The notes below the pieces were generated by a model. That model ran no database searches. It worked only from the letters and a program-made list of their open reading frames with translations, and was not told where the DNA came from. The translations under genes and the position numbers were made by a program. Positions 33,383-51,675 of a stretch of 64,000 nucleotides of DNA are shown in pieces; position 1 is the stretch's first letter, and the number at the start of each line of letters is the position of its first letter. This stretch comes from a virus. The DNA is taken from IMG/VR virus record IMGVR_UViG_3300030406_003150, positions 1-64,000 of that record; one strand, written 5' to 3'.

Positions 33383-33456
33383 TACACCCGACAGGATTCG
33401 AACCTGTGACCGTCTGCTTAGAAGGCAGATGCTCTATCCAACTGAGCTACGAGTGC
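33383..33456 (-). tRNA. tRNA-Arg(UCU)
   Basis: Full cloverleaf GCACTCG...TCTGC-CTTCTAA-GCAGA...GGTTCGAATCC...CGGGTGT-A; CCA not encoded. Confidence 0.93.
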
Positions 33457-33795: not shown

Positions 33796-33867
33796 TGCTC
33801 TCTATTGGATTCGAACCAATGACCTACGAATTATGAGTTCGCTGCTCTACCGCTGAGCTAAGAGAGC
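33796..33867 (-). tRNA. tRNA with CAU anticodon (Ile2 or elongator Met)
   Basis: GCTCTCT...GCGAA-CTCATAA-TTCGT...GGTTCGAATCC...AGAGAGC-A; lacks initiator features. Confidence 0.9.
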
Positions 33868-37133: not shown

Positions 37134-37622
37134 TCAGCTAGCTATAAATACTTCTAGTTGAGCTGTGGCGTTTTCATCATTAATAGCGATGATGCTCTCA
37201 AGATCTACCAAACTACCTATCGCAGTAGCAGTAGCAGCGTCATCATCTACTGCTGCGACCCCTACAGCCTTACCCAACATAAAGCTTTTACCAGCTTCTA
37301 ACAATATCGTCGCCTGAGTACTCGCGGCAGCACCGCCGTTTGCTGCAAGCTGTAGAGAAAGAGTCACAGAGTTCGTACTCTCTAAGTTCGTTACTCTTAC
37401 ATACTTGACGTCATCGTCATCTAAAGCGCCATCCGCCGTAGTAACGTCAGTTCTAAAGTTGGCTATCGTAGTTTGAGTGGCAGATCCTCCCCCGTCAGCA
37501 GGTAAAGTGACAAGTCTTTTGAAAGACTGTGTAACACTAGCAATATTTAGCGTGTTTGTTGCACCCTGCTGAGTGCCATTGAGCGAAAGCTCTTCTCTAA
37601 TTGTTACAGTGAGTACTCCCAT
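37134..37622 (-). CDS. Probable structural protein
   Basis: Thr/Ala-rich beta protein, VKYVRVTNL; TATATTTG box 4 nt upstream (37627-37634). Confidence 0.55.
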   Translation of the reverse strand: MGVLTVTIREELSLNGTQQGATNTLNIASVTQSFKRLVTLPADGGGSATQTTIANFRTDVTTADGALDDDDVKYVRVTNLESTNSVTLSLQLAANGGAAASTQATILLEAGKSFMLGKAVGVAAVDDDAATATAIGSLVDLESIIAINDENATAQLEVFIAS

Positions 37623-37634
37623 GCAACAAATATA

Positions 37635-37763
37635 CTATTTTTTATTCTTAAAGAATTCAATCTGTCGCAAGCGCTTCAGTGCAGCCTTCTTAGTCAAGAA
37701 TTTACCTAGCAACTTCCCCTTCTTACTGCGGATCTCGTAGGTATTCTTCCTTTTTACTATCAT
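37635..37763 (-). CDS. 42-aa basic protein
   Basis: KGKLLG.F.TKKAA.KRLRQIEFFK motif. Confidence 0.55.
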   Translation of the reverse strand: MIVKRKNTYEIRSKKGKLLGKFLTKKAALKRLRQIEFFKNKK

Positions 37764-37894
37764 GACAGTCCTTGTGCCTTTACAGCTCGTATGGTTTGAT
37801 TGACGTGGGATTATTTTAAAGTGCATACGCACTCATAAATTTACCAATGTAGCATTTAAAACAACTTATTGTGTCACTTCACTAACAATGTAGG

Positions 37895-37925
37895 CAAAGT
37901 TACAGCTTTTTTTTTAAAAAGTCAA
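37895..37925 (-). promoter_or_regulatory. Leftward promoter TTGAC...TAACTTTG
   Basis: TTG 20 nt before TAnnTTTG, same geometry as the early promoters. Confidence 0.6.
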
Positions 37926-38073
37926 GCCATAAAGTAGATTCTAAGTAAAGAGTCTTATGTGTTTGTAATACAGCATCTTACTAGATTTAAAAAGTGGACA
38001 CATATATACCCCTTCTCTCGCCAACACGCCTCCCGTCTTCTTTTTTTTGGTAGAAATACAGATCTGGGGGATT

Positions 38074-38393
38074 ATATATGTATGTACACACACGCGCACG
38101 CACACCAAAACCGCCTGCGTAACCCCGCCCCCATAATGCGGCTGCAGTTTGCGCGTAGTTTTTTGGCTTTTGTGCTGCCACAAGTAACTAAGAATCAGCA
38201 GGTTACAGCATCCAGTTGAAGCAACGGTTGAATTTATGGACGCTAACTGGCTGAAAGAGAGGCAGAACAATCCCCTCACCTACACACATACTTGCGCACA
38301 TATACACGCACACGTAGGTACACACACACATCACACACGCATAGTGAGCGCACTGTGGGCACATAGCGGGTGGTGTGGGCACACAGCGGGTGA
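38074..38393. repeat. Alternating purine-pyrimidine (CA/TG) tracts plus a 20-bp tandem repeat at 38354-38393
   Basis: tacacacacgcgcacgcacac and similar tracts; TGTGGGCACAYAGCGGGTGR twice. Confidence 0.75.
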
Positions 38394-38508
38394 TGATGCG
38401 CTGTAATGCGCTATGATGCAGGCACACATACAAGCCAGACCCAAAAAAATTTTGCCTCGGAAAGCCCAGTGTTTGCAGGGGTTTCAGCGATGCGACCAAA
38501 AAAAGTGC

Positions 38509-38539
38509 TTGACAAAGGTGTTTCGATTCCCTACCTTTG
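38509..38539 (+). promoter_or_regulatory. Early promoter P1, TTGACA-N17-TACCTTTG
   Basis: Bacteroidota -33/-7 consensus; near-copies at 39844 and 41768. Confidence 0.85.
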
Positions 38540-38579
38540 TCGCCGTCGGCAACGTCGCTGACCTCAAAATCTCTTACCT

Positions 38580-39197
38580 ATGGCAAACGCCACATACACT
38601 CCCACACACTGCCCACAGACAGGGCGCAAGTTCACCAAGGCTGAGCGCAAGGCCGCTAACAAGGCGAAGTACGCTGCTGAGCGTGCTGCTCAGGCTGCAT
38701 CGAAGCCCAAGTCCAAGCGCAAGGCCAAGGCGCAAAAGGCCTCACCCAAGCCCACGAAGGTGAGCGTACCCACTCGCAAAGCGAAGCTGATGCGTATGAC
38801 CAAGGCTCAGTTGGTTGACCTCATCATCGGCGCTGAACCACCAGCACCCAAGCGCAAGCCCAAGGCGAAGCGCAAGGCTGTAGCGAAAGGTCGCAAGGCC
38901 TCACCCAGCGAGCGTGTAGCAGACAAACAGGAGCGCGGGGCACACGGTGCGAAGGGTGTCGGCCCAATCGAGCCGCAGCCTGAGGGTCACACGTCAGACG
39001 TGAAGCAAGCACGTAAGGCGACGGAGGCGATGGGGGAGCGCAACCGCCGCAAGCATGCGAAGAAGCTGGCTATGCGCTGGGCATTTGCACCGAACTACGG
39101 TGGCATGTTCCTTGAAGGTCAGCAAGCGGAGTTGCAGCGCCTGCTCGGTGACGTGGATGTGTCCACCTACGAGGACGTAATGGCCGCTGTACTCTAA
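38580..39197 (+). CDS. Lys/Ala-rich histone-H1-like early protein
   Basis: Repeated KPKAKRKA-type segments; first gene after P1. Confidence 0.65.
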   Translation: MANATYTPTHCPQTGRKFTKAERKAANKAKYAAERAAQAASKPKSKRKAKAQKASPKPTKVSVPTRKAKLMRMTKAQLVDLIIGAEPPAPKRKPKAKRKAVAKGRKASPSERVADKQERGAHGAKGVGPIEPQPEGHTSDVKQARKATEAMGERNRRKHAKKLAMRWAFAPNYGGMFLEGQQAELQRLLGDVDVSTYEDVMAAVL

Positions 39198-39209
39198 GCC
39201 TGTCGAATC

Positions 39210-39809
39210 ATGGTAAGTTTCAGCACACTACCGCTCGCTACAGTCACACGCCACACCAAGGCGTGGGCTGGGCGGGCATCCGATCACGAGCGCGAGGAAG
39301 GCTTGCGCTGGTACAAGGAAGCGATGGAATTCGCTGAATACCTGTCGATTACGTTCAACATCTCAAAGGTCGTAGCTGCGGGCGTGATAAGCGCCCTGAG
39401 CCCGAACAACAAGTGGGAGCGCAACAAAATCGATGCATTCAACCTGATTCAGGCATACGTAGACGGTCGCACGATGGATGATGTGAGCGTGTGTACGTAC
39501 ACGAACAACAAGCGCCGCGCGTGGGGCATCCTGAGCGGTGACGTGGAGATGCTACGCAAGGCACGCAAGACCCACGCATTTGCGCTGAATGTGGGTGCGA
39601 TGGATGAATCTGTCGTTACCATTGACAAGTGGATGCTCCGTGCGTTTGTGACTACGTCGCTCAAGCCCAAGGACGTGCCTACTACGTGTACTCCCGTGCA
39701 GTACGACCGTCTGAGCGCTCACTTCTGCAAGGTGGCGCGTGCTATGGGGTACAAGCCCTACGAGTTGCAGGCTATCATATGGGTCACCATTCGTAATCGA
39801 TGGCTCTGA
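39210..39809 (+). CDS. Phage protein, possibly HhH-glycosylase-like fold
   Basis: WY...ALSPNNKWERN...VTID.W...ELQAIIW pattern. Confidence 0.5.
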   Translation: MVSFSTLPLATVTRHTKAWAGRASDHEREEGLRWYKEAMEFAEYLSITFNISKVVAAGVISALSPNNKWERNKIDAFNLIQAYVDGRTMDDVSVCTYTNNKRRAWGILSGDVEMLRKARKTHAFALNVGAMDESVVTIDKWMLRAFVTTSLKPKDVPTTCTPVQYDRLSAHFCKVARAMGYKPYELQAIIWVTIRNRWL

Positions 39810-39843
39810 AACCCCAGTAAATGCTGGCAAATCGAAAATAAAT

Positions 39844-39874
39844 TTGACAACGCTGTTTGGATTCCTTATCTTTG
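39844..39874 (+). promoter_or_regulatory. Early promoter P2, TTGACA-N17-TATCTTTG
   Basis: Consensus match; similar to P1 and P3. Confidence 0.85.
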
Positions 39875-39903
39875 CAGTCCACGAAATCAAAATTCTCTTG
39901 CAT

Positions 39904-40143
39904 ATGGAAAACGCACCACGCTACTGCTCAATCACCAACGAACCTATGTGGGAAGGTTGGTACTTCGAAGGGATTGGGTTCTTCTACGTCAAGTACGAGA
40001 AGGATGCGCTCCGCATCTGCCAAGAACACGACTACGCCACGCTGGATGAGGCGTTCGATGACGAGTTCATGTACTGGACTGACTGGCACGACATCCCCAA
40101 GGACGAGTGGGACTTACCCACGAACCTACCCAAGGTACACTGA
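39904..40143 (+). CDS. 79-aa acidic/aromatic early protein (start MENAPRY)
   Basis: ATG after AATCAAAAT leader; stop codon lies in the hammerhead core. Confidence 0.7.
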   Translation: MENAPRYCSITNEPMWEGWYFEGIGFFYVKYEKDALRICQEHDYATLDEAFDDEFMYWTDWHDIPKDEWDLPTNLPKVH

Positions 40144-40183
40144 TGAGTCCTGAATGGACGAAACGCTGCGAAGCGTCTGTATC
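40134..40183 (+). ncRNA. Type I hammerhead ribozyme HH1, predicted cleavage after GUC (C40177)
   Basis: GGUACA-CUGAUGA-GUCC(UGAAU)GGAC-GAAA-CGCU(GCGA)AGCG-UC-UGUAUC: complete core with three stems. Confidence 0.93.
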
Positions 40184-40201
40184 AATCAAAATCTCTCACA
40201 C

Positions 40202-40453
40202 ATGAGCAAATACGAAAACGGCTACCTGCCTAAGATTGCCTACCACATGTTCAAGGGCAATCAAGACCGAGTTGATTACTTCGTTCATCGACAACTGACC
40301 ACGTACGGGCCAATCGAAGACCGCCAGCGCTGGTGGGTAATCGAGGAAGTCCACCGACTCCGAGAACAACAAGCGAAGCCTAAGACCTTCGAAGATGCAT
40401 TGGCACTCTGCCACAACAAAGACGAGGTGCTGGCTCAACTCAAAAACCTCTAA
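40202..40453 (+). CDS. 83-aa early protein bracketed by two hammerheads (start MSKYENG)
   Basis: ATG after AATCAAAATCTCTCACAC leader. Confidence 0.7.
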   Translation: MSKYENGYLPKIAYHMFKGNQDRVDYFVHRQLTTYGPIEDRQRWWVIEEVHRLREQQAKPKTFEDALALCHNKDEVLAQLKNL

Positions 40454-40503
40454 GGCACACTGACGAGGCTTGAATAGCCGAAACGCCGCGAGGCGTATGT
40501 GTC
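40454..40503 (+). ncRNA. Type I hammerhead ribozyme HH2, predicted cleavage after GUA (A40497)
   Basis: GGCACA-CUGACGA-GGCU(UGAAU)AGCC-GAAA-CGCC(GCGA)GGCG-UA-UGUGUC; four compensatory pair changes relative to HH1. Confidence 0.93.
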
Positions 40504-40522
40504 AAATCAAAATCATTACACT

Positions 40523-40822
40523 ATGCACACAAGCATTCCCCGTCTACGTGCCCTGCACATCGAGTTCTTCGGCCCTACCAACACGAAGGGCGCACGAGTC
40601 CGCATCAAGGACGAACGCAACAACGTCACCAAGTGGCTGGCATATGACTACGCTGTCGGAGATATCGTAGAGCAGTCGTATACGTACCTTGAGCAGCAGG
40701 GCGTAATCAAAGAGGGCACGGATATGTGGGGTGACAAGGACGTCTACCCGATGCTGATTCTGCACGACACACGCCGAGGCTACACGCTGGGCGTACCTAA
40801 CTTCGAAACCCCAATCAAATGA
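40523..40822 (+). CDS. 99-aa early protein (start MHTSIPR)
   Basis: GPTNTKGARVRI motif; leader motif upstream. Confidence 0.7.
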   Translation: MHTSIPRLRALHIEFFGPTNTKGARVRIKDERNNVTKWLAYDYAVGDIVEQSYTYLEQQGVIKEGTDMWGDKDVYPMLILHDTRRGYTLGVPNFETPIK

Positions 40823-40890
40823 GTACAGCAATCCTTTGTGCCTACGCTGTGGGCACGGTAATCGTTACAATTCAATCCCTGAAAAAATGA
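40819..40890 (+). CDS. 23-aa hydrophobic peptide MSTAILCAYAVGTVIVTIQSLKK
   Basis: ATGA overlaps with both neighbouring genes. Confidence 0.5.
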   Translation: MSTAILCAYAVGTVIVTIQSLKK

Positions 40891-41069
40891 TACGAAGCAC
40901 TTTCGACAAGTGGATACACAAAGGCGAGGTCATAGGCAGCGTGCGTTGTGTGAACTACGCTAAGATGGCTTTGGCTGTCTGGGCGCAAGGAAGGGACGCA
41001 GATGCCTTCGTATATCTGGACAAAGCAAAGCGAGAGTTTTACATCACGGCAGATGAACTGCCATTCTAA
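40887..41069 (+). CDS. 60-aa early protein
   Basis: ATGA-coupled start. Confidence 0.55.
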   Translation: MIRSTFDKWIHKGEVIGSVRCVNYAKMALAVWAQGRDADAFVYLDKAKREFYITADELPF

Positions 41070-41080
41070 ATCAAATCACA

Positions 41081-41371
41081 ATGAAAACACAACAACACAT
41101 TGACGCGCTGTACGAACGGCGCAAGACAGCAGGCGGATTCGAGCAGGCGTTGATCGACGCATACTTGCGAGCCGATGGCGGCAATACAAGAATTCTCGAA
41201 GAGGCTTTCAAGGGTACTCGGTTTGACCTGACTCCGAAACCCAAGTTCAACAGCGGCGTGGAGACGCTACGCAATGCTGCGTACTGGTCAGGGCATCGTG
41301 ACGAGTACCTGAACGACGACAAAACAGCCTACCAACTCATCGACGAATACCTGAATGAAAAAGAACAATGA
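41081..41371 (+). CDS. 96-aa early protein
   Basis: GGF..ALIDAY.RAD..N..IL..AF motif; leader motif. Confidence 0.65.
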   Translation: MKTQQHIDALYERRKTAGGFEQALIDAYLRADGGNTRILEEAFKGTRFDLTPKPKFNSGVETLRNAAYWSGHRDEYLNDDKTAYQLIDEYLNEKEQ

Positions 41372-41490
41372 GAGCAATGACGGACTTATGGAGAGAAGGG
41401 TACGACTACCCAAGCGATGACGATGATGCATATGAGTATGACATCATGGAGGAAGCAGACCGAGCATACGAATACGAAAACGATATATGA
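41368..41490 (+). CDS. 40-aa very acidic peptide
   Basis: MRAMTDLWREGYDYPSDDDDAYEYDIMEEADRAYEYENDI; ATGA coupling. Confidence 0.55.
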   Translation: MRAMTDLWREGYDYPSDDDDAYEYDIMEEADRAYEYENDI

Positions 41491-41491
41491 A

Positions 41492-41758
41492 ATGGAAACA
41501 AAATTCTTGAACGAACGATTACCCATCCGCATAGGCACCAAGGTCGTGTATCGCGGTGGCTTTGGCTTCGAAGGCCGCAAGGTGGCGCGAGTCACACACA
41601 TAGAGCAGACGTTCCACCCGAACGAGAAGTACGGACACGAGGTGGACGAGGTGACATACTCGCAAGACCATTACGTACTCAATCTGGATGACGGCCACTG
41701 GTGTTACTCCCACCAAGTCGATGGGGTCGTTGTAAATGACTGTGAATCAACCGATTAG
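41492..41758 (+). CDS. 88-aa early protein (start METKFL)
   Basis: ATG follows the previous stop by one base. Confidence 0.6.
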   Translation: METKFLNERLPIRIGTKVVYRGGFGFEGRKVARVTHIEQTFHPNEKYGHEVDEVTYSQDHYVLNLDDGHWCYSHQVDGVVVNDCESTD

Positions 41759-41767
41759 AAAAAAAAC

Positions 41768-41798
41768 TTGACAACGGCGTTTGAATGTCGTATCTTTG
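41768..41798 (+). promoter_or_regulatory. Early promoter P3, TTGACA-N17-TATCTTTG
   Basis: Consensus match with upstream A-tract. Confidence 0.85.
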
Positions 41799-41818
41799 CA
41801 TCGTCAATCGATTACTGG

Positions 41819-41882
41819 TTGAGCTGTCCACTCAAGGTGGTGTATGTACTCCGACACATACGGGGCGAAAGCCTCGGACAGC
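41819..41882 (+). ncRNA. Structured leader RNA (multi-branch), family unknown
   Basis: GCTGTCC/GGACAGC closing stem with GTATGT/ACATAC and GGGGC-GAAA-GCCTC arms. Confidence 0.55.
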
Positions 41883-41914
41883 CTTCCACAATCACAAATC
41901 AAAATCTCTAACAC

Positions 41915-42112
41915 ATGGAAAAGCAAGAATACTTTTACTACTTCGAGAATGGCGGATGGAACTCAGAGTTCGCCACGTCTATCGAGGAGGCTCGGCAGAT
42001 GGCTGAGGCACGATGGGCACACTTGGACAGCCTGACCCCTGCACCTAAGACGTTCAAGCCCGTAAAGGGGAACGAGGAGCACTACAAGTCGCTGCTCAAT
42101 ATGTTCTACTAA
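41915..42112 (+). CDS. 65-aa early protein
   Basis: Leader AATCAAAATCTCTAACAC-ATG. Confidence 0.7.
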   Translation: MEKQEYFYYFENGGWNSEFATSIEEARQMAEARWAHLDSLTPAPKTFKPVKGNEEHYKSLLNMFY

Positions 42113-42120
42113 TCACACAT

Positions 42121-42252
42121 AGCATTGACATATCCCGCATGAGGATGCGGTAAGGATGTGCCAAACCAACAAACGTTCCTTCTACCCGTTACCACGGGCT
42201 TATGGCAACGAGCGTGAGGGATGGCGGTGGTTCGATCCCACCCTATGCTACA
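42121..42252 (+). ncRNA. tRNA-like RNA: acceptor stem and canonical T-arm with non-canonical internal arms
   Basis: AGCATTG/CTATGCT stem (6 of 7 pairs), GGTGG-TTCGATC-CCACC T-arm, 3' A-CA like the two true tRNAs. Confidence 0.6.
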
Positions 42253-42258
42253 ACGGTA

Positions 42259-42299
42259 CTCACCATTAAATCTGGTAGGTGAGCTAAGTCGATACCAGG
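42259..42299 (+). ncRNA. Predicted H-type pseudoknot
   Basis: Stem 1 CTCACC/GGTGAG and stem 2 CTGGTA/TACCAG, interleaved. Confidence 0.5.
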
Positions 42300-42451
42300 A
42301 CCACTGAGCGACACGTTAAATCACCAGGAAGACCATTACCTGTGGTGTGAGCTATGGAATCATGAGGCTTGCACCTACGAGAGAGAAACTCTGCGTGGCG
42401 TGGATAGAAGGGATAAACAAAGCCGACCACATTAACTCAAAACTCTAACAC

Positions 42452-42598
42452 ATGAAAGACGAAATCATTGCCCGACTCGAATACTTCGAAGAAACCATTG
42501 CAGGTGAAATCGAAACTTGGCTAGACCCCGTGACGGGTGACTACTACCACGTACCTATAGAAATCGTGCGTGACTTTGACAACATCGAAAAACTCTAA
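42452..42598 (+). CDS. 48-aa acidic protein MKDEIIARLEY...
   Basis: Hand-translated; flanked by identical 20-nt leader repeats. Confidence 0.65.
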   Translation: MKDEIIARLEYFEETIAGEIETWLDPVTGDYYHVPIEIVRDFDNIEKL

Positions 42599-42601
42599 CA
42601 C

Positions 42602-42817
42602 ATGAAAGTACTCCAACCAACGTCAATAACTACAACAGGCACCCCAGTGAAGTGCCAAAGCATCTCAATCGACAGCAAAGAAATAGCAATCCTGTTCTTC
42701 GGAACACGAGAAGTGGACATCATCGCCGTCCCTGAAGCCCACATCCCTATTGGGGACGTGGACGAGTACCTCGAAGAACTCGGATACAACTTATCAGAAA
42801 TCCTTTACATGACATGA
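42602..42817 (+). CDS. 71-aa acidic early protein
   Basis: Leader repeat upstream. Confidence 0.6.
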   Translation: MKVLQPTSITTTGTPVKCQSISIDSKEIAILFFGTREVDIIAVPEAHIPIGDVDEYLEELGYNLSEILYMT

Positions 42818-42966
42818 CATACGAACAATTTGAACTGCTCCGTAAGTGGGCAGAGCGTGTGGCTAACACAGCCAACGACACTGACACGAACATACGCTCC
42901 ATCGATCTCGTGCATGACATTGCAGGAATTTTGGCTAATGACGAACACTTTTTGCCACGACTGTGA
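42814..42966 (+). CDS. 50-aa protein MTYEQFELL...
   Basis: ATGA/GTGA coupling on both sides. Confidence 0.55.
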   Translation: MTYEQFELLRKWAERVANTANDTDTNIRSIDLVHDIAGILANDEHFLPRL

Positions 42967-43196
42967 TAACTGGAGACCTCAACCTACAAGAGATGAGCAG
43001 ACTGACACAAAGCAAGGGCGTGTGCCCGAACTGCAAGGCTGACAGCCACATCAGCTACAGCAAGCTGAAAGACCAGTACGACCCCGACCTTGTATACTTC
43101 GACGTCAAGTGCCACAACTGCGGTACTACGTGGGACGAGCATTACAGCCTCGTGTTCTTCGAACAAGACAACATTCAAATACCATCACAACAATGA
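42963..43196 (+). CDS. Zinc-ribbon protein
   Basis: CPNC...CHNC. Confidence 0.6.
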   Translation: MITGDLNLQEMSRLTQSKGVCPNCKADSHISYSKLKDQYDPDLVYFDVKCHNCGTTWDEHYSLVFFEQDNIQIPSQQ

Positions 43197-43600
43197 AATA
43201 CTGGAACGAACAAGGACGATACCAACAGGAGTACAACGCATACTGGAAGGCACTTGTACCCGACACAGGCGAAGCATCTACCACCGAAGGCGAGGCACTC
43301 CGAGCCATCAGCCGAATCTACTACGATATCTACAACAACGGTGGCTGCAACATCCTCGAAAGCCAAGAAGTGTATGACGATGACGGCAACTACGAGTGCG
43401 ATGAGCATTCAATCTCCTCGTTCTACGACAGCTTCTTTGATACTGTTGCCCGATTCACGGGGGACCACGACAACGTGCGTTTACTCAAGATGAAGGTGGA
43501 GGACTTGGGTGTGGACTACTGGCACAAAGACCTCGGAACTATGCTTGATAGCCTGATTGACAAAACCATAGAAAAGATTGGAACAGAAAAAGCAGCATGA
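43193..43600 (+). CDS. 135-aa acidic protein (start MKYWNEQG)
   Basis: LVP..GEA.T..GE.LRA..RIYYD.YNNG motif. Confidence 0.65.
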   Translation: MKYWNEQGRYQQEYNAYWKALVPDTGEASTTEGEALRAISRIYYDIYNNGGCNILESQEVYDDDGNYECDEHSISSFYDSFFDTVARFTGDHDNVRLLKMKVEDLGVDYWHKDLGTMLDSLIDKTIEKIGTEKAA

Positions 43601-43764
43601 CACATGAACAACTCCAAGAAATCTTCGGCCTCGAATGGATTGACTACCTCGACTATTTGTGTGAAGAGTAGTGCAAACGAAGATCCCGCGAAGGATTTCA
43701 ACGAGTGGATGCAGCACGTCTACTCACAAGTCAAAATCAATTACGAACGTAAACTCAAAATCTC

Positions 43765-44160
43765 ATGTACAAAATCAGATTCCACCTCGCCAAAGGCGAA
43801 AACTTCATGAAGTGGCAAATCAAAGCGCCAGGCTTAGTTCGATACGTAGACCCCGCTGAATTTCAGATAGCTATGTTCAATGCCAAGCTCAAGGTTCAAA
43901 CAGGCACGTCAAAAAAGATTCACGAAGGTGCATGCAAAACTGTGTGTGCTTGGGTTCAATGTGAAGAGTTCCAGATTACAAGGAACGACAAAATCAAACC
44001 CAACGTAAATGACTTCTACGTCAGGTTCAACCCACGCCGTAATCCTGAATGGGTAGACATGCACGACAACATCATGAGCAACGAGGAGTACAGCTTGCTG
44101 GTAAGCCAAGATCGTAGCCTGTTTGTAGTGACCGAGAACCACCAATGCGACGAAGAATGA
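43765..44160 (+). CDS. 131-aa hypothetical protein
   Basis: Leader CAAAATCTC-ATG; K.VCAWV.C and FNP motifs. Confidence 0.6.
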   Translation: MYKIRFHLAKGENFMKWQIKAPGLVRYVDPAEFQIAMFNAKLKVQTGTSKKIHEGACKTVCAWVQCEEFQITRNDKIKPNVNDFYVRFNPRRNPEWVDMHDNIMSNEEYSLLVSQDRSLFVVTENHQCDEE

Positions 44161-45194
44161 CATACGAAGAAATCATAGAGCAAGAGCCGCAACCGATAGT
44201 GTACTCCATTGACTTCCCAAACGGGATGTTCTATGTGGGTCGGACGGTGGATGTATCGAGGCGGGCAAAACGTCACTTCCATGAGTCGATGCGGTCCGCA
44301 CACAGCAACACAGCTATGGAGCGATGCTTCAAGAAGTATAAGTTTCAAGAAACATGGGGGGTGATAAAGACATTTGCTACTGCGAAGGAAGCTGTAGATT
44401 TCGAGGCGATGTACATCGAAGAGTTCTGGGATGACCCTTTGTTCCTGAATCAGAAGCGCGGTGACAAGTTTACCGCGTTGGAAAACGAGCGACAACACAG
44501 CAAGCTGGCGTACTACATGAACGCATACACAAAGATGATGTGGCGATCAGAGAAGAAGGGTGAATTGCGCCATCAGATGGGGCAAAAGGGATACCAGCCG
44601 CTACCTTCTGGTATTGGAGGTAAGTGCCACAGGGTATTGGCTTATGGTTCTACCCCAGAGGAGTGTGAAGCAGATGCAGAACGAATATTACGGAGGGATT
44701 TTGTTCAGATATGCAACAAGATTGACCCCCCTTGGAAAGAAAAAGCTAATCAAAAGCTAAACGCCAAGCGAAAAGAGGAACGCAGAATAGCAAAGCTAAA
44801 GAAGTCATATGTGGTTAAGGACCTGAAGACAGGACGTGTTTCGATTGCTAAATGGTGGTGTAGCAAGAAAGGACTTACTCCTGGTCAGAAAAGAGTGTTA
44901 AATGAAGGTGTAAGACCATGGTCTCTGCACAACGTGAGAAGGTATGGAGAGCCTTGGGCGGAATTCGTTCCTGAGAAAACTCAATCGTGGGCAAATCACA
45001 ACAAACCCAAGCCCATCGTAGGGGTACACAAGAGTGGAAAGATAGGCGAGTGGGCTAGCGTGGGTGCATTCGCAAGAGAGGAACTAAATGCTAAAACAAG
45101 ATCAAGAAAAAAATGCTTACGGGCACAAGCAATAATATCAATCGAAAGAAATGGCACATGCCATGGGTGGGAACTAAAATACAAGAAACAATGA
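44157..45194 (+). CDS. GIY-YIG endonuclease (homing-endonuclease-like)
   Basis: IVYSI...FYVGRT...R...H, E and N catalytic pattern; long basic C-terminus. Confidence 0.7.
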   Translation: MTYEEIIEQEPQPIVYSIDFPNGMFYVGRTVDVSRRAKRHFHESMRSAHSNTAMERCFKKYKFQETWGVIKTFATAKEAVDFEAMYIEEFWDDPLFLNQKRGDKFTALENERQHSKLAYYMNAYTKMMWRSEKKGELRHQMGQKGYQPLPSGIGGKCHRVLAYGSTPEECEADAERILRRDFVQICNKIDPPWKEKANQKLNAKRKEERRIAKLKKSYVVKDLKTGRVSIAKWWCSKKGLTPGQKRVLNEGVRPWSLHNVRRYGEPWAEFVPEKTQSWANHNKPKPIVGVHKSGKIGEWASVGAFAREELNAKTRSRKKCLRAQAIISIERNGTCHGWELKYKKQ

Positions 45195-45550
45195 ACAACG
45201 TTAACTACATCTACTCCTACGTTCACAACGGAGCGTGGGTATTCGACGACGAGTCACGAGAGCTCGACAAAGAACCTTTCGTGGAAGGTGCTGACCTTCT
45301 CCTCGACGCCATGAGCGGACGAGACAAATACGAGTACATCGACAGGTGTGCATTCTACTTCGCTGAGACTCCTCTCCCCAACTGGGATGTACAGCTCAAG
45401 ATGCACGGACATGACGGATACGACGGCACGTACTACAAGGTTGACTTCCCTGAGAAGAACGTCAAGAACGAAGGTCCAATCTGGCTGTGTCCAGCACTAC
45501 TGAAGTTCTTTGACAAATCACCACAAAACATTTACGTAAAAATCAAATGA
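45191..45550 (+). CDS. Phage protein with WVFDD...EPFV.GAD motif
   Basis: WVFDD, EPFV and WLCPAL.KFF...P..IY motifs. Confidence 0.65.
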   Translation: MNNVNYIYSYVHNGAWVFDDESRELDKEPFVEGADLLLDAMSGRDKYEYIDRCAFYFAETPLPNWDVQLKMHGHDGYDGTYYKVDFPEKNVKNEGPIWLCPALLKFFDKSPQNIYVKIK

Positions 45551-45867
45551 CGAACGAAGCAGCAATCAAGATGATTCGGGACAAACACCGAACCGAAAAC
45601 AAAGCGGAGAAGCTAGCAGCTATGTACGCTATGGATGACATCATATTCGATGATATCGAAGTGTGGCTCAAGACACCCACGTACAAACACATCGAACAGT
45701 TTGTGAGCATTGGGCTGGAGGTCTTGGAAGATTATATGTGTGAACCACACACAGATGAGGATAAGCAACGTAAGTTTGCAGAAGGAACGCTTGGTATCGC
45801 AGAGTCTATGTACCACTACGCTCAGATACATCACGAGCTACAAGAAGAGTCTATGTCAGAACGCTGA
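45547..45867 (+). CDS. Hypothetical protein
   Basis: 106-aa coupled ORF. Confidence 0.55.
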   Translation: MTNEAAIKMIRDKHRTENKAEKLAAMYAMDDIIFDDIEVWLKTPTYKHIEQFVSIGLEVLEDYMCEPHTDEDKQRKFAEGTLGIAESMYHYAQIHHELQEESMSER

Positions 45868-45951
45868 CATGAGAGGGACGTATGGTGTGCGGGGAGATCC
45901 CGTAACAAGCCTTGTGTAAGAGAGCTTTGAGAAACAAAGTCCCTCTTTTTC

Positions 45952-45982
45952 TTGGATTATCAACATTGGCTTTGTAGGTTTG
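45952..45982 (+). promoter_or_regulatory. Promoter TTG-N20-TAGGTTTG for the replication genes
   Basis: Bacteroidota consensus spacing. Confidence 0.65.
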
Positions 45983-46000
45983 GTGGATAAAATTTAATCC

Positions 46001-46399
46001 ATGAAAAAAAGAATTGACAAGGTGATGAGAGAGTATTCCAAGGTCATTCACGTAGACATCAAGTCAAAGCGACGCCTAGCCTACATAGTGCAGCCAAGGG
46101 CAGCATTGATGGTTGCGATGAGCAGAGAGATGCCCGTCGTTGAGGTAGCCAGAGCATTCGGGATGAACCACGCAACGGTGCTTCACCACAAGAGAAAGCA
46201 TCTGGGAAACTTAGATCATTGGCTGGGCTACAGAGACAAGTACGAGATAGCAAAGGCTATGTGTGATGCATGGCTAAGGCGAGAGCGGATTGTGCAAGCA
46301 ATCGAAACAGTAAACAATAAAATTGAATCGCTACAAGACGTAGCACAAGAATTAAATCAAAGGTTAAACAATGAGCAATTACAAGTTCAAGACCACTAA
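46001..46399 (+). CDS. DnaA C-terminal-like HTH DNA-binding protein
   Basis: R....V.PR...M......EVARAFG.NHATVLH. Confidence 0.7.
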   Translation: MKKRIDKVMREYSKVIHVDIKSKRRLAYIVQPRAALMVAMSREMPVVEVARAFGMNHATVLHHKRKHLGNLDHWLGYRDKYEIAKAMCDAWLRRERIVQAIETVNNKIESLQDVAQELNQRLNNEQLQVQDH

Positions 46400-46886
46400 C
46401 ATTCGTGGTAAGCAGTACGTTGAAGTCAACGAACGCATCAAGTTCTTCCGACAAGAAGAGCAGTACAAAAACTGGAGTTTGATAACAGAGTTCACCGTGC
46501 TGGACAGCGAGCAATGTGTGTGCAAGGCATCGATAGCAGACCCAGAGCATCGCATCATTTCGGTCGGACATGCGCACGAAGTGCAAGGAAGTAGCAACAT
46601 CAACAAGACGAGCTACGTAGAGAACTGCGAGACCTCAGCAATCGGCCGTGCGTTAGCCATGCTGGGGATTGGAATCGACACTTCCATTGCATCGGCTAAC
46701 GAGGTATCAGATGCTATTGCCAAGCAGGAGGCAAGCGATGAGCCAGTAGAAAATATCATGGACAAAGCTGTTGCTTACATCAAGTCGCAGACCGACAAGA
46801 AGAAAGCGTTTGAGTCCATCATGTCCAAGTACAAGGACAGCCTGACCGACAAGCAGGTAGCTGGACTCAAGAAGTTTGTTCGATGA
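46371..46886 (+). CDS. ssDNA-annealing recombinase (Rad52/Sak-like)
   Basis: GKQYVEV.ERI and ENCETSAIGRALA motifs. Confidence 0.7.
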   Translation: MSNYKFKTTNIRGKQYVEVNERIKFFRQEEQYKNWSLITEFTVLDSEQCVCKASIADPEHRIISVGHAHEVQGSSNINKTSYVENCETSAIGRALAMLGIGIDTSIASANEVSDAIAKQEASDEPVENIMDKAVAYIKSQTDKKKAFESIMSKYKDSLTDKQVAGLKKFVR

Positions 46887-47173
46887 GGGTTGACTTAGTT
46901 AGAACTGATCACAAGAAGTACGCACAGTTCAGGGCTTCGGCGCTGAAGCTCAAAGTCAAGAAGGTTTGGGTGGAAACCAAAGACGCAAACCCAGAGTTTG
47001 ACGGGTTGTTTTTCATCAAGCACAAAGACTTCTTGGGCGACATAGACATAGCTGAGTTCTTCATCAACTCCAAAGGCCAAAGCTTTTGGCTTACGCCGAG
47101 TGATCCCACACACTGGGCAGAGATAGAGACCTACGAGTACAAAGACAAAGAGGGAAATTTAATTTACGAATGA
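46883..47173 (+). CDS. Hypothetical protein
   Basis: 96-aa coupled ORF. Confidence 0.55.
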   Translation: MRVDLVRTDHKKYAQFRASALKLKVKKVWVETKDANPEFDGLFFIKHKDFLGDIDIAEFFINSKGQSFWLTPSDPTHWAEIETYEYKDKEGNLIYE

Positions 47174-47955
47174 TGACAATACCTGAACAATTACAAGAGA
47201 GATACAACAAATCGCACCTCTCTTACTCCTCTATCAAGCAAGCGCTGGGGGACATGGCGCAGTTCGACCGATACATGAAGGGCGAGCTGGTGTACAAGTC
47301 CGAAGCCCTAGATTTTGGTACGCTGTACGACATGCTGCTGTTCGAACGAAAGAAAGCGATGGAAACATACTTCGTCATCAACAAAAACAGGATACTTGCC
47401 GAGTGCAGCTCCAAAACTAAATCGTCTAAGTCTCCTCACCTTACAAACGAATACAAGTCTGTAAAGGCGGACCTTGAGCAGCAAGCAGAACTCAAAGGAA
47501 TGACCTTAGTGTCACACGAAGATTGGCAGATGGCTAACGATATGATCGACAGACTAGCGACGTGTGGTCTGCTTGACACCTATCTAGCTGGTGAGTACCA
47601 GGTGGGATTCCTTGAAGAGCTGCATGGTATTCAAGTGAAAGGATTCCTTGACTGCTTGGGTGACGGATTCATCAGCGACAGCAAGTCTTCACGCAGCGCA
47701 GAGAAGTTTCGCTACGCAGTCAGAGACTTCTGCTACGACATCCAAGCATACATATACACAAAGGTGTTTGGAATAAAAGATTTCTACTGGGTTGTTCAGG
47801 AGAAAACTTATCCGTATCTTCCTGCTCTCGTCAAGTGTAGCGATGAGACAATCTTTGTGGGTGAAATGAAATTCAATGATGCAGTAAACAGGATCAGAAC
47901 CTTCTTGAGAGAGGACTATGACCCAACAAAGGATTACTTGCAGTATGAAGTTTAA
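47170..47955 (+). CDS. PD-(D/E)XK exonuclease (RecE/Cas4-like)
   Basis: LSYSS, FGT, KGFLD...DSKS, YDIQAYIY, QEK..PY. Confidence 0.8.
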   Translation: MMTIPEQLQERYNKSHLSYSSIKQALGDMAQFDRYMKGELVYKSEALDFGTLYDMLLFERKKAMETYFVINKNRILAECSSKTKSSKSPHLTNEYKSVKADLEQQAELKGMTLVSHEDWQMANDMIDRLATCGLLDTYLAGEYQVGFLEELHGIQVKGFLDCLGDGFISDSKSSRSAEKFRYAVRDFCYDIQAYIYTKVFGIKDFYWVVQEKTYPYLPALVKCSDETIFVGEMKFNDAVNRIRTFLREDYDPTKDYLQYEV

Positions 47956-48043
47956 GAAAGCGTGGGAAACCGTTGCGGGTGTATTGTACTACATGTCAGC
48001 GGCTTTCTGTGTGGCAATGTTAATAGTAGAAATTTTTAATTAA
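47945..48043 (+). CDS. 32-aa single-TM peptide
   Basis: MKFKKAWETVAGVLYYMSAAFCVAMLIVEIFN fills the gap. Confidence 0.45.
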   Translation: MKFKKAWETVAGVLYYMSAAFCVAMLIVEIFN

Positions 48044-48051
48044 TTTAAAAG

Positions 48052-48357
48052 ATGAGTGATCAAAACAAAAAGTACGAGAGTGTTCTCGTAGGCTGGGCAG
48101 ACGAGCCTAGCTACAATGACAACGGTGAGTTGATGGGGTGGAGCTTCCGCCTCAAGGACAACGAGTTGAAAGACGCTATTGACCAGTACGCTACCAAGCG
48201 TGACGAGAACGGTCAGGGTGGTAACATTCGATTCCGATTGTTCATGTCGAAGTCGGGCAAGCCATGCCTCAGCGTATGGGACCCGAACAGCGAGGCGGCA
48301 CAAGAACGCCGAAACAACCAGGCTAAAAACGGTGGGTCATCTGACTTGCCGTTCTAG
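48052..48357 (+). CDS. Probable single-stranded DNA-binding protein
   Basis: C-terminal DLPF tail; next to recombinase and exonuclease. Confidence 0.65.
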   Translation: MSDQNKKYESVLVGWADEPSYNDNGELMGWSFRLKDNELKDAIDQYATKRDENGQGGNIRFRLFMSKSGKPCLSVWDPNSEAAQERRNNQAKNGGSSDLPF

Positions 48358-48382
48358 TATATCATGTCATACGGTTAAGGGG

Positions 48383-48414
48383 AGGGGTTGAGATTATTCT
48401 CACCCCTTTTCTTT
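48383..48414 (+). terminator. Intrinsic terminator
   Basis: AGGGGTTGAGA-TTAT-TCTCACCCCT followed by TTTCTTT. Confidence 0.7.
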
Positions 48415-48430
48415 CCCTTACTCTTACACA

Positions 48431-48709
48431 ATGGGAAAGCCTATCTATTACATCGAAGCAGAAGCTACGATTATCAAAAACAGAAGGCCAGTATCTAAGA
48501 TGGTGTGGATAGTAAGCACATACGACAACCCATCGGACATCATGAAGCATGACATGAGAACCATGAGCAGGCTACGGGATCAGCTGATTACAAAGAAGGC
48601 CAAGAACAAAACAGTTTTAATTGAGAGTATCAAGTCAATCAAACAAGTAGGAACGACCTCCAATGCAAGTAACTATCTACAAAAATCTCTACAAGAAAAG
48701 CGCAAGTGA
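48431..48709 (+). CDS. Hypothetical protein
   Basis: 92-aa ORF. Confidence 0.5.
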   Translation: MGKPIYYIEAEATIIKNRRPVSKMVWIVSTYDNPSDIMKHDMRTMSRLRDQLITKKAKNKTVLIESIKSIKQVGTTSNASNYLQKSLQEKRK

Positions 48710-50480
48710 TGCACACATAGTCCCTGTGATGGCCGCCCTGAAAAGAATCAAAGATGGCTCATCGAAAGACAAGATTGAAAAGATTAGATCAGGAGAGAAG
48801 GAGTTCAAGAGGGCTTTACCTGTAGTTCTTTTCAGCGGTGAGTTTGGCGCCAGAAAAGACAACGAGATACGAAAGCACAGCTCCTTCATAGTCTTAGACT
48901 TTGACCACATAGAAGTAGAAAAGTCGAAACCAGTTATAGGCACAGACCCTTACGTATATGCCTGCTGGGTGTCGCCTTCGGGAGACGGCATCAAAGCGCT
49001 GGCAAGAATTACAAACCCAGAAAGACACAGGGATCACTTCAGGGCGCTTGTAGCATACTTCAAAAAGCAATACGACCTTGAGGTTGATATATCTGGAATC
49101 AACGAGAGCCGAGCTTGTTACGAATCATACGACCCAGACATCATACTAAACGAGGGCAGCAATGTCTTCGGTGCGCTTCAAGTAGATTCTAAGCAAGAGC
49201 AGGTAGCTGTCTCACAATCAGAGAGTTACACCGATTACTTAAAGTTAAATCTAGCAGCAAAGATGATTCGTCAATGCCCTGACGGAGAGAAGCATGCAAC
49301 GTTGCTTAGGGCTGGAAGGTTGTGCGGTGGATTTATATCTGCTGGGCGCATGGAAGAGGACGAGGTGATTCGTGTGCTCACCAGAGAGATACTCAAACGA
49401 GACGTTGATGACGAAGAGCATACGGTAAGGACGTTACGAGAGGCTGTAGAGAAGGGCAAGCAAGATCCCATAACCGTAACCATACAAGACGAGAAGAAAG
49501 CACAGAGGGAGCTTCTAATCAACGATGGTGACATGTCCTTCATATCGTCAGACGACGAAGACTTCCGATGGATTGACGACTTTGCAAACGGAAAGATACC
49601 CGTAGGGCTAGATACTGGTGACGTGGAGCTTGATAGGTTCTTCAGATACAAAAAGGAGTTCGTTATTGTAAACGGGCACAGTAACGTGGGCAAGACTACC
49701 ATGGTGCTGTACTTGATGGTAAACTCTACTATGCGGCACGGATGGAAATGGGTAGTGTACTCCTCTGAGAACCGTACAGCCTCCCTAAAGATGTCACTGA
49801 TACAGTTTGCAATGAACAAGTCTGTATCATCCATGAACCATGCACAAAGGAAGAAAGCATACGAGTGGGTTGGCAAACACTTTGTCATCATCAGCAACAA
49901 GCAGATATACAGCTACACAGACATTATAGTATTCTTAGAGAAGATACTTAAGCAGCAAAGCATTGATGGCGTGTTTGTTGATCCCTACAACAGCCTCAAA
50001 TTGGACATGAGAAACAGCTCTATAGGCGTACACGACTACCACTATGAAGCAGCCTCTGAGTTCCTTACGTTCTCCACCTCTAACAACGTAGCAGTCTGGC
50101 TGAACATGCATGCGGTTACTGAGGCTCAAAGAAGGAAGGGGCCTGACGGTTTGCCTGTAGCGCCATACGCGGAGGACACAGAGGGCGGCGGTAAGTTTGT
50201 GAATCGTTCTGATTGTTTTGTCACAATACACCGCAAGGTTCAGCACCCTGATCCCAACCAGAGAAAGGTCACGGAGTTTCATATCCGCAAGGTGCGAGAC
50301 GTAGAAACTGGTGGCGAACCGAGCCCCTTAGAGGAGCCAGTCCGCTTTGAGATGAACACTTCGAGGACTGGGTTTAGGCTGTACAAGACTCAAATGGATT
50401 TGTTCCAACCCCTTGATTTACAGCAATCTAAGCAGTCTTACTTTACGTGGGGCGAGAACAGTTCGTTTTTAAAAGAATAA
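48663..50480 (+). CDS. Primase-helicase (BT4734/VirE-N-like primase domain plus DnaB/RecA-fold helicase)
   Basis: LDFDH, SPSGDG.K, Walker A GHSNVGKT, VFVDPYN, H..T. Confidence 0.8.
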   Translation: MQVTIYKNLYKKSASDAHIVPVMAALKRIKDGSSKDKIEKIRSGEKEFKRALPVVLFSGEFGARKDNEIRKHSSFIVLDFDHIEVEKSKPVIGTDPYVYACWVSPSGDGIKALARITNPERHRDHFRALVAYFKKQYDLEVDISGINESRACYESYDPDIILNEGSNVFGALQVDSKQEQVAVSQSESYTDYLKLNLAAKMIRQCPDGEKHATLLRAGRLCGGFISAGRMEEDEVIRVLTREILKRDVDDEEHTVRTLREAVEKGKQDPITVTIQDEKKAQRELLINDGDMSFISSDDEDFRWIDDFANGKIPVGLDTGDVELDRFFRYKKEFVIVNGHSNVGKTTMVLYLMVNSTMRHGWKWVVYSSENRTASLKMSLIQFAMNKSVSSMNHAQRKKAYEWVGKHFVIISNKQIYSYTDIIVFLEKILKQQSIDGVFVDPYNSLKLDMRNSSIGVHDYHYEAASEFLTFSTSNNVAVWLNMHAVTEAQRRKGPDGLPVAPYAEDTEGGGKFVNRSDCFVTIHRKVQHPDPNQRKVTEFHIRKVRDVETGGEPSPLEEPVRFEMNTSRTGFRLYKTQMDLFQPLDLQQSKQSYFTWGENSSFLKE

Positions 50481-50497
50481 GCTGTAACTTCCACGAT

Positions 50498-51016
50498 GTG
50501 AAGCGAAAGGCGAAGGGCACTCCAAGACGAAAGACCGCTAAGAAAAAAAACTTAGGTAAGTATAAGAGCGGGTTGGAAAAAACATGCGCTGACCTTTTAG
50601 CTGAATCGGGGCTAAGTTTTGCCTATGAGAAGCATGAGTACATCCTGATGGACAAGTTTAGATACCCAGGAACGTATCTAAAAATGACATCAAAGCGTAA
50701 GGATCTATCGGACAGAACCAATAAGGTCGTCCTACCAATAAAATATACTCCAGACTTTGTGGGACCAGACAAAGGTTGGATAATTGAAACCAAAGGGTAT
50801 ACACCTTCGCATCACGACTTCCCGATGCGGTGGAAGCTATTCCTAAACCACTTGATAGACTCAGGAGAACCAGTCCCTGCACTGTTCATCTGCAAAAACA
50901 AACGGCAGATTGAAGAGGCAATAGAGAAGATTAAAGAACTAGGGTATGGTAAAAAAAGAGCTAACAAAAGAACAACTAGGCGAAAGCTACAGAATAGCGA
51001 CAGTCAGGCTGCATGA
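50498..51016 (+). CDS. T7 endonuclease I-like Holliday junction resolvase
   Basis: YKSGLE...YTPDF...IIETKG. Confidence 0.8.
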   Translation: MKRKAKGTPRRKTAKKKNLGKYKSGLEKTCADLLAESGLSFAYEKHEYILMDKFRYPGTYLKMTSKRKDLSDRTNKVVLPIKYTPDFVGPDKGWIIETKGYTPSHHDFPMRWKLFLNHLIDSGEPVPALFICKNKRQIEEAIEKIKELGYGKKRANKRTTRRKLQNSDSQAA

Positions 51017-51230
51017 AATTGTAGATAGGCTGTACGAAGACCTCTTCGATCAGGAGGGTAACCCGCGCTGCGACAGTGGGAACATAGCGAACATGATTGC
51101 TTCGCAAAGAATATCAATTAATCAAGAGTTGGAGCTGATCAAAGATGCTTCATACGAACACCTCGAATCAAATACAAATGAACAATCAAAACAGGAGGGT
51201 ATATTCTTCTACGACGGGCAGGGTAGCTGA
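50946..51230 (+). CDS. Hypothetical protein
   Basis: 94-aa ORF. Confidence 0.5.
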   Translation: MVKKELTKEQLGESYRIATVRLHEIVDRLYEDLFDQEGNPRCDSGNIANMIASQRISINQELELIKDASYEHLESNTNEQSKQEGIFFYDGQGS

Positions 51231-51675
51231 GACCCGATTCCAAAGAGCGGCAGAGAAGCTAGGCTTGAAAGTAATGAAGAGCGAAAACGATCAAGACATT
51301 CACCTGCATGTAGATTATTGGCTGAGCTACGATGGCGGCAACAATCACGGCGTAGATGTAAAGGGCAACAACTTGCCCGACGAGATATGGTGTGAGTTCA
51401 GGAACGTAAACGGAGACCCTGGATGGATGTACGGGTATGCCAGTATCGTTGCCTTTGACATGCCTGAAGAAGGTGGGTTCTGTGTGGTGGACACAAAGGA
51501 CCTACGAAAGTATTGTGAAGACCACGTAGAGGATGTGGTTGTGACTCACAAGTCAAATGCTTACAAGAAAAAGTACCAACGCAAAAACAGAGAGGATATC
51601 ATCACGAGGATTTACCTGTCTGATTTGAAGACAATTAGTTCTTACAGGGTGTGGGAGTACAACAAAGACTACTAG
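51178..51675 (+). CDS. PD-(D/E)XK nuclease-like protein
   Basis: G..AE..F, HVDY, VDVKG, W.E..N..G..GW.YG. Confidence 0.65.
   Translation: MNNQNRRVYSSTTGRVAETRFQRAAEKLGLKVMKSENDQDIHLHVDYWLSYDGGNNHGVDVKGNNLPDEIWCEFRNVNGDPGWMYGYASIVAFDMPEEGGFCVVDTKDLRKYCEDHVEDVVVTHKSNAYKKKYQRKNREDIITRIYLSDLKTISSYRVWEYNKDY

Follow-up and report, generated by a model that had tools for sequence, protein, structure and literature searches.

What might a self-cleaving RNA do for a phage when copies of it stand at two consecutive gene junctions of the same operon? The question is raised by a 64,000-nucleotide stretch of viral DNA (here called the window: positions 1–64,000 of a single 78,121-base IMG/VR contig, 44.8% G+C) from an uncultured, apparently lytic marine phage of 78 kb. 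A reading made from the sequence only had pointed to two hammerhead ribozymes in this window, referred to below as HH1 and HH2, and had proposed that they divide an early transcript into separate messages. The hammerheads are real, and they are probably functional. The interpretation that we favor, and to which we would assign a probability of about three in four, is that both would be active type I hammerheads, transcribed as part of the early operon from a promoter-like element designated P2, and that they would cut the message at gene junctions.

Two type I hammerheads at consecutive gene junctions

HH1 is a 50-nt fold at 40134–40183 on the + strand (40133–40185 with a conserved flanking A at position −1 and AA at positions +1 and +2), and HH2 is a 50-nt fold at 40454–40503 on the same strand (40453–40505 with the A and AA flanks); the two starts are exactly 320 nt apart, and each element has the full core and all three stems that were claimed for it. 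In HH1 the parts are stem I (GGUACA/UGUAUC), the core CUGAUGA (40140–40146), stem II (GUCC/GGAC) with the loop UGAAU, the GAAA strand, and stem III (ACGCU/AGCGU) with the loop GCGA; the site is GUC, with the predicted cut between C40177 and U40178. The corresponding parts of HH2 are stem I (GGCACA/UGUGUC), the core CUGACGA (40460–40466), stem II (GGCU/AGCC), GAAA, and stem III (ACGCC/GGCGU), and its site is GUA, with the predicted cut between A40497 and U40498; the loops UGAAU and GCGA are indeed common to both copies. Each thus has an open stem I of 6 bp, a stem II of 4 bp and a stem III of 5 bp, with stems II and III closed by loops, which is the type I topology. The features of the hammerhead class are present in both, namely the C3-U4-G5-A6-N7-G8-A9 strand, G12-A13-A14, the A15.1-U16.1 pair and an H17 that is not G; all of the stem pairs are standard and there is no mispair adjoining the core. 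Ten positions differ between the copies, and the four compensatory pair swaps that had been noticed from the sequence account for eight of these; the other two are N7 and H17, both of which are free in the consensus.

Both elements lie within a + strand block that begins at about 38.0 kb and contains many small open reading frames (ORFs) followed by replication genes, with minus-strand blocks of large ORFs on both sides, and both are on the coding strand of the + strand operon. Gene A (39904–40143; 79 aa) ends with a TGA at 40141–40143 that is part of the CUGA of HH1, and gene B (40202–40453; 83 aa) ends with a TAA at 40451–40453 directly 5′ of HH2, both as first read; the final A of the gene B stop codon is also the conserved −1 A of HH2. 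Gene C (40523–40822; 99 aa) follows, and like genes A and B it is on the + strand. Searches of Pfam and PHROGs assign no family to gene A or gene B and only a weak match to phrog_3199, a family of unknown function, to gene C, and they provide no usable function for any of the three.

A descriptor scan requiring the core and three stems, run on both strands of the whole 78,121-base genome, returned exactly HH1 and HH2, and 100 dinucleotide shuffles yielded a mean of 0.01 per genome. A covariance model built from the gap-free subfamily copies described below, used with its filters off, identified no third copy in the 64-kb window, where the next match scores 10 bits, and no further copy in the last 14 kb of the genome. 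The minimum-energy structure of HH1 and of HH2 is the hammerhead junction, and when only upstream RNA is included, as during transcription, the hammerhead fold is within 0–1.7 kcal/mol of the optimum for both copies.

Orthologues in related phages and a viral type I subfamily

Relatives were taken as the 36 viral contigs that encode the upstream DUF7178 (phrog_3842) protein. In the closest of these, whose protein identity is about 80%, phrog_3842 is followed, as in the window, by gene A, a hammerhead, gene B, a second hammerhead and gene C, and the distance from the last base of the phrog_3842 gene to the first ribozyme is the same 326 nt. Orthologous hammerheads are found at the same junctions in L119, L120, L121 and L127, and in L119 and L120 they flank gene B in the HH1/HH2 layout; gene A is 80–84% identical at the amino-acid level in L119, L120 and L127. 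HH1 is 96–98% identical in L119 and L120, with changes only in loops II and III, against 84% identity for the adjoining gene A and 66–69% at its third codon positions. For HH2, the comparison with the L119 orthologue reveals ten changes, which comprise three compensatory pairs (40468/40478, 40470/40476 and 40487/40492), N7, two loop II bases and H17, and there is not one change at the fixed core bases. This comparison is independent of the search descriptor and provides the strongest evidence of selection on the ribozyme fold.

A pattern search of IMG/VR using the core and loop II alone recovered at least 118 loci, and HH1 and HH2 belong to a subfamily of at least 120 distinct copies with one architecture. 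Counted among the matches listed, as are the other tallies given here for the subfamily, 84 of the 118 loci have the full three-stem fold, many of them with 2–4 copies. A 6-bp stem I is found in 111 of 114 unique copies, and 117 of 122 copies have a stem II of 4 bp; the base preceding stem I is an A in all 111 copies compared, with an A at +1 in 107 and at +2 in 92 of 111 on the 3′ side of the stem. In those copies where the search pattern did not force the outcome, loop II is 5 nt in 34 of 44 and has a U at both ends in 39 of 44. H17 is a C in 111 copies and an A in 11, with G excluded by construction. In 23 aligned copies, the core strand is invariant except for N7, and in the same gap-free, length-matched set 11 of the 15 pairs vary on both sides, where pairing was a selection criterion and variation was not; controls with slid partners are 25–39% paired.

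The conserved flanking bases suggest how so small a ribozyme may work. Fast cleavage by natural hammerheads at the Mg2+ concentrations of cells depends on a tertiary contact of stem I with loop II, and the flanking A's may form an open loop I that provides it by touching loop II; these A's and the terminal U's of loop II, the candidate partners, are strongly conserved, and invariant bases cannot covary.

The positions of the copies relative to genes are also regular among the matches listed. The strand with more ORF cover carries 105 of 115 instances, and the upstream ORF usually ends either just before the element or at element positions 0–1, 6, 10 or 20. The stop triplets at those positions are the UAA in GGUUAA, the UGA in CUGA and a UGA in loop II; the ribozyme thus offers stop triplets in several frames, and genes often terminate inside it. 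In 85 instances with a nearby downstream ORF, the median distance from the cut site to the next ATG is 26 nt, and 73% fall within 18–33 nt. Copies within one contig (L009–L118 and the window) have an identical stem I in 25 of 39 pairs, an identical stem II in 10 and an identical stem III in three, the corresponding figures between contigs being 9%, 7% and 1%; the commonest stem I, GGUUAA/UUAACC, is present in 33 of 122 copies. Where the copies of one contig have an identical stem I, the first 6 nt would be common to every mRNA that the ribozymes of that phage release.

The covariance model was also used on further assemblies. Among prokaryote assemblies, 10 of 11 pattern matches contain full copies, and the three matches from cultured isolates are all in Bacteroidota: Flavobacterium granuli, Daejeonella rubra and Paraflavitalea speifideaquila. 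A full type I copy is present in a cultured member of the Schitoviridae, Agrobacterium phage OLIVR1 (MT234338.1; L168, 3957–4014), between gp12 and gp13 in the early region; it scores 49.9 bits in the covariance model, has no annotated feature over it, and is predicted to cut after C4003, which would leave gp13 a 26-nt leader. Short contigs of metagenome-assembled genomes carry 1–5 subfamily copies, including L162 (7.8 kb, Promineifilaceae, five copies), L164 (5.3 kb, Streptomycetaceae, four copies) and the Poseidoniales-type archaeal contigs L159, L161 and L166; these may be phage or virus contigs that were binned with cellular genomes.

Promoter-like elements, leaders and the proposed processing

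The P2 element (39844–39874, + strand) consists of TTGACA, a spacer and then TATCTTTG, which fits TAnnTTTG, the Bacteroidota −7 box. Related promoter-like copies are present on the same strand as P1 (38509–38539) and P3 (41768–41798); the three have in common the extended sequence TTGACAA..GTTT..GAWT..TAYCTTTG, ending in TAnnTTTG, and each heads a part of the early + strand block. There is no terminator-like site on the + strand between P2 and P3. If P2 functions as a promoter, transcription would start near 39879–39882, and with a start near 39880 the leader of gene A would be about 23–25 nt long, the same as the leaders that the ribozymes would make. The first of these leaders (40178–40201, + strand) is 24 nt, A/C-rich with a single G, opens with the 3′ strand of stem I and extends to the ATG at 40202; the second (40498–40522, + strand) is 25 nt and extends to the ATG at 40523; and both contain AAUCAAAAU 9 nt before the ATG. 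The leader lengths given in the sequence-only reading are borne out.

The exact sequence AATCAAAAT occurs four times in the 64 kb, always on the + strand and always 9–10 nt before an ATG: at 39885 after P2 (gene A), at 40184 after HH1 (gene B), at 40505 after HH2 (gene C), and at 41897 before the gene at 41915. The sequence belongs to a common leader, AAUCAAAAUCUCUnACAC-AUG, found also in the relatives L121, L124 and L127, and if the host lacks Shine-Dalgarno pairing this leader may serve as the signal for starting translation. The copy at 41897 is separated from P3 by about 100 nt of apparently structured RNA (41797–41896, + strand) with GUAUGU/ACAUAC and GGGGC-GAAA-GCCUC hairpins. We considered this segment as a second ribozyme class and rejected it, as it has no credible Rfam match and a fold z-score of −1.7.

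In two of the relatives a promoter-like element stands where a hammerhead stands in the window. L121 has such an element directly before gene B, with a CAAAAUCUCAAUC-type leader and no hammerhead at that place, and L124 has one directly before gene C, again with a CAAAAUCUCAAUC-type leader and no hammerhead. The promoter-like element and the hammerhead thus replace each other before the same leader and gene, which provides the best comparative support for the view that the ribozyme makes a promoter-like 5′ end.

From the computed motif, conservation, covariation and positional regularities we infer cleavage and co-transcription from P2, and consequences for translation and decay, and the events may be envisaged as follows. 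Each ribozyme would fold once transcribed and cut after GUC in HH1 or after GUA in HH2. Because stem I is an open helix, 44 nt of folded ribozyme together with the stop codon would stay on the upstream RNA, and 6 nt plus the leader would go downstream. The upstream mRNA would then have a 3′ end consisting of a compact ribozyme fold with a 2′,3′-cyclic phosphate, and the downstream mRNA would begin with a 5′-OH followed by an unstructured A/C-rich leader of 24–25 nt, with the same motif and about the same length as the predicted promoter-made leader of gene A. The products would be a gene A mRNA, a gene B mRNA and a remainder led by gene C, each with a promoter-like 5′ end. In a host phylum, Bacteroidota, that is not known to use Shine-Dalgarno pairing, cleavage would in this way relieve the downstream start site of structure and of ribosomes arriving from upstream, and the stabilities of the cleaved pieces would be uncoupled. 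The sequence-only reading had envisaged conversion of the whole P2 transcript into monocistronic mRNAs, and the predicted layout fits this for genes A and B. Monocistronic messages would be limited to these two, since no ribozyme separates gene C from its downstream neighbors; gene C is the first gene of the predicted polycistronic RNA that remains 3′ of HH2, where it stays joined to them.

Several observations weigh against this interpretation. The hammerheads are patchy among relatives, and the survey of related genomes that had been suggested for early gene junctions has a mixed outcome: they are present in L119, L120, L121 and L127, but L122 and L124 have none, nor has any relative whose protein identity is 61% or lower. 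Maribacter phage Panino, the closest cultured relative by primase/helicase, is also without a hammerhead. This patchiness indicates that the processing is dispensable. Within the operon itself, no ribozyme is present at C|D, D|E or E|F, where the genes overlap or are separated by little sequence. Stem I is only 6 bp and open, and the tertiary contact is read solely from the A and AA flanks and the U...U loop. When 60–100 nt of downstream RNA are included, the HH2 hammerhead fold lies 3.7–5.4 kcal/mol above the optimum, and because a better competing fold exists once the downstream RNA is made, HH2 must act early or be partly trapped. Two marine metatranscriptome runs hold 4–6% of the sequence words, in the form of Logan contigs of relatives that are about 93% alike, in which RNA ends are not visible; one such contig crosses the HH1 cut site, by only 8 aligned and 15 loose-end letters. 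Lastly, there is the outcome of the Rfam search that had been proposed as a check: at gathering thresholds the window contains two tRNAs only and no ribozyme, and against RF00163 (Hammerhead_1) HH1 scores 23.6 bits (E 0.005) with a gathering score of 34, while HH2 is not reported. The score of HH1 is lowered mainly by its longer stem III, which has 8 nt in place of a 2-nt stretch in the model, and we read the sub-threshold score as a limit of the model and not of the element.

Of the other explanations, the one that survives best, unlikely as we consider it to be as an account of the principal role, is that the ribozyme-leader modules are mainly the boundaries of mobile cassettes, with the 50–75-nt repeats acting as homologous recombination sites for single small genes and with cleavage secondary or a leftover of their spread. 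Strain variants bear on it directly. In one metatranscriptome contig position 39899 is fused to 40198, within the repeated leader, so that gene A and HH1 are missing; in another, gene A runs into an HH2-like ribozyme with the leader of HH2, as if the 320-nt unit had been lost and with it gene B and one hammerhead. What L121 lacks is exactly gene A and HH1; in L127 these two are present and an unrelated gene comes next, and in L124 gene C is present, with gene B and all hammerheads absent. The repeated ribozyme-leader modules therefore mark cassette boundaries, with breakpoints in the leader or the ribozyme, and the identity of stem I in 25 of 39 within-contig pairs, against 9% between contigs, points in the same direction. 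However, sequence repeats suffice for recombination, and the retained catalytic bases, the compensation in stems II and III and the invariant flanking A are left unexplained. Cassette exchange is real at the DNA level, and it is compatible with processing of the message by HH1 and HH2.

Less likely again is that the hammerheads tune expression, with cleavage stripping the 5′ triphosphate or an upstream protection, or competing with terminating ribosomes, so as to reduce the expression of genes B and C or set its timing. The location of the upstream stops at or inside the elements (position 10 in HH1, position 0 in HH2) is consistent with this, as a terminating ribosome would unfold stem I and the core, and so is the competing fold of HH2 once downstream RNA exists; condition-tuned hammerheads in haloviruses are discussed by Perreault et al. 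(PMC3088659). The element is minimal, though, with no ligand-binding or switch domain, and the plain promoter-like element before the same leader and gene in relatives points to the making of a 5′ end rather than to attenuation.

It is improbable that the 320-nt RNA 40178–40497 is excised, with a 5′-OH and a cyclic phosphate, and circularised by the ribozyme or an RtcB-type ligase to give a circular coding RNA of the kind seen in retrozymes and viroid-like elements. A pair of same-sense ribozymes at a spacing of 320 nt would supply the right end chemistry, circular RNAs of eukaryotic systems have been linked to ribozymes in tandem at spacings of 186–399 nt (PMC13725137), and Perreault et al. 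raised the possibility (PMC3088659). Yet the same authors sought circular or spliced products and found none (PMC3088659). In the hybrid stem I that the circle would need, GGCACA faces UGUAUC with a C-A mismatch that is conserved in L119 and L120, and in the optimal fold of the hybrid this stem does not form. Furthermore, 320 nt is not a multiple of three (the remainder is 2), the ORF ends in TAA, and the circular fold is 53% paired and not rod-like. That HH1 and HH2 are chance motif matches or decayed, inactive relics, as the sub-threshold Rfam score might suggest, is effectively refuted by the finding of two where 0.01 are expected per genome, by orthologues that are conserved above their coding flanks with permitted substitutions only, and by the at least 120 distinct family copies of one architecture.

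The phage nature of the contig is evident from a 3,026-aa ORF with an LPD38 domain (Pfam) and from the crAss-type muzzle C-terminal domain of a protein of 1,519 aa. The closest cultured relatives by primase/helicase are phages of marine Flavobacteriia, with Maribacter phage Panino (33% identity) followed by Cellulophaga phi38:1 and related phages; a megablast of positions 38000–43000 against cultured phages gave no match. An N4-like phage, the first guess from the 3,026-aa ORF, is not supported: LPD38 is what that ORF contains, the crAss muzzle domain is on another ORF, and the relatives are Flavobacteriia phages. Two tRNA genes lie on the minus strand at 33383–33456 and 33796–33867 (Rfam tRNA, 71.8 and 74.5 bits), and ARAGORN reported no tRNA-like gene over 37500–53000. 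In the early/replication arm, a 349-aa ORF (44145–45194, + strand) matches homing endonuclease families (phrog_314, plus weak GIY-YIG-type matches).

Relation to known systems

In phage T7 the early polycistronic mRNA is processed by RNase III, a host protein, which cuts hairpins and leaves a 5′-phosphate and a 3′-OH. The likeness to the arrangement described here, a long early transcript cut at gene junctions, is one of analogy only, as in this phage the RNA would cut itself and leave a 5′-OH and a 2′,3′-cyclic phosphate. With respect to known hammerhead models, HH1 and HH2 resemble RF00163 (clan CL00010) in the open 6-bp stem I, the core, the strand order and the 4-bp stem II, and the HH1 stem II, GUCC/GGAC, is the model consensus. 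They differ from it in stem III, which is 5 bp with a GNRA-type loop where the model has three pairs around a 2-nt stretch (8 nt there in HH1), and in loop II, which is 5 nt with the U...U ends. Standard Rfam annotation thus overlooks an abundant viral subfamily.

Hammerhead punctuation of phage genes has been described since 2011, and HH1 and HH2 are a clean new example and not a new mechanism. Perreault et al. 2011 described prophages with several hammerheads flanking single genes or short gene blocks and proposed processing into gene-length mRNAs (PMC3088659); the clusters are in Clostridium scindens, Azorhizobium caulinodans and Agrobacterium tumefaciens prophages, clustered hammerheads cleave native polycistronic RNAs of about 2 kb in vitro, and type II forms are very common in bacteria (PMC3088659). 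The present elements have the same arrangement of same-sense hammerheads between small genes of phage origin, on the coding strand and flanking single genes (PMC3088659). They differ from the clusters, as far as the text consulted describes them, in being minimal type I forms in an apparently lytic phage with Flavobacteriia-phage relatives and a Bacteroidota-type promoter box, and neither a fixed leader of about 25 nt nor a promoter/hammerhead swap is reported there (PMC3088659). Four sequence strings of the subfamily were not found in the supplementary text of Perreault et al. 2011, a text that may omit the alignment dataset, and our literature searches returned nothing specific on hammerheads in Flavobacteriia-type phages, on a fixed leader length or on exchange between promoter and hammerhead. 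Type II hammerheads adjoining phage-like genes are known to cleave in vivo from cyPhyRNA-seq (PMC8782182).

What gene-flanking hammerheads do for a phage has nonetheless been a matter of inference since 2011. To the earlier descriptions we add a defined and abundant type I subfamily that falls under Rfam thresholds, evidence of promoter equivalence and a cultured phage carrier, OLIVR1. The locus itself is a clean natural case, with two copies only, both intact, with visible selection, leaders that match the promoter-derived leader and a promoter swap in relatives, and it therefore lends itself to a specific and testable hypothesis, that cleavage gives internal cistrons a promoter-like 5′ end.

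The nearest functional parallel is found in RNA viruses of eukaryotes. Type I forms with a long helix III were already known in bacterial and phage DNA (PMC13725137), and Lopez-Galiano et al. 2026 found that translation of fungal and plant RNA viruses depends on cleavage by type I hammerheads in their 5′ untranslated regions (PMC13725137). The hammerheads in the 5′ untranslated regions of chrysoviruses and fusariviruses are, like HH1 and HH2, of type I with a long helix III and just upstream of a viral ORF (PMC13725137), although theirs is the setting of eukaryotic RNA viruses and cap-independent translation, and ours is that of internal operon cistrons in a bacterial DNA phage known from sequence alone. 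A broader and distinctly tentative proposal is that in phages of Bacteroidota the hammerhead and the promoter could be interchangeable devices for making 5′ ends, and that cleavage about 25 nt before the ATG might be required for efficient translation of internal cistrons, if initiation favors a short unstructured leader near a 5′ end. The modules could then also serve as joints for exchange of early cassettes, and the arrangement would be the bacterial counterpart of the one in fungal and plant RNA viruses.

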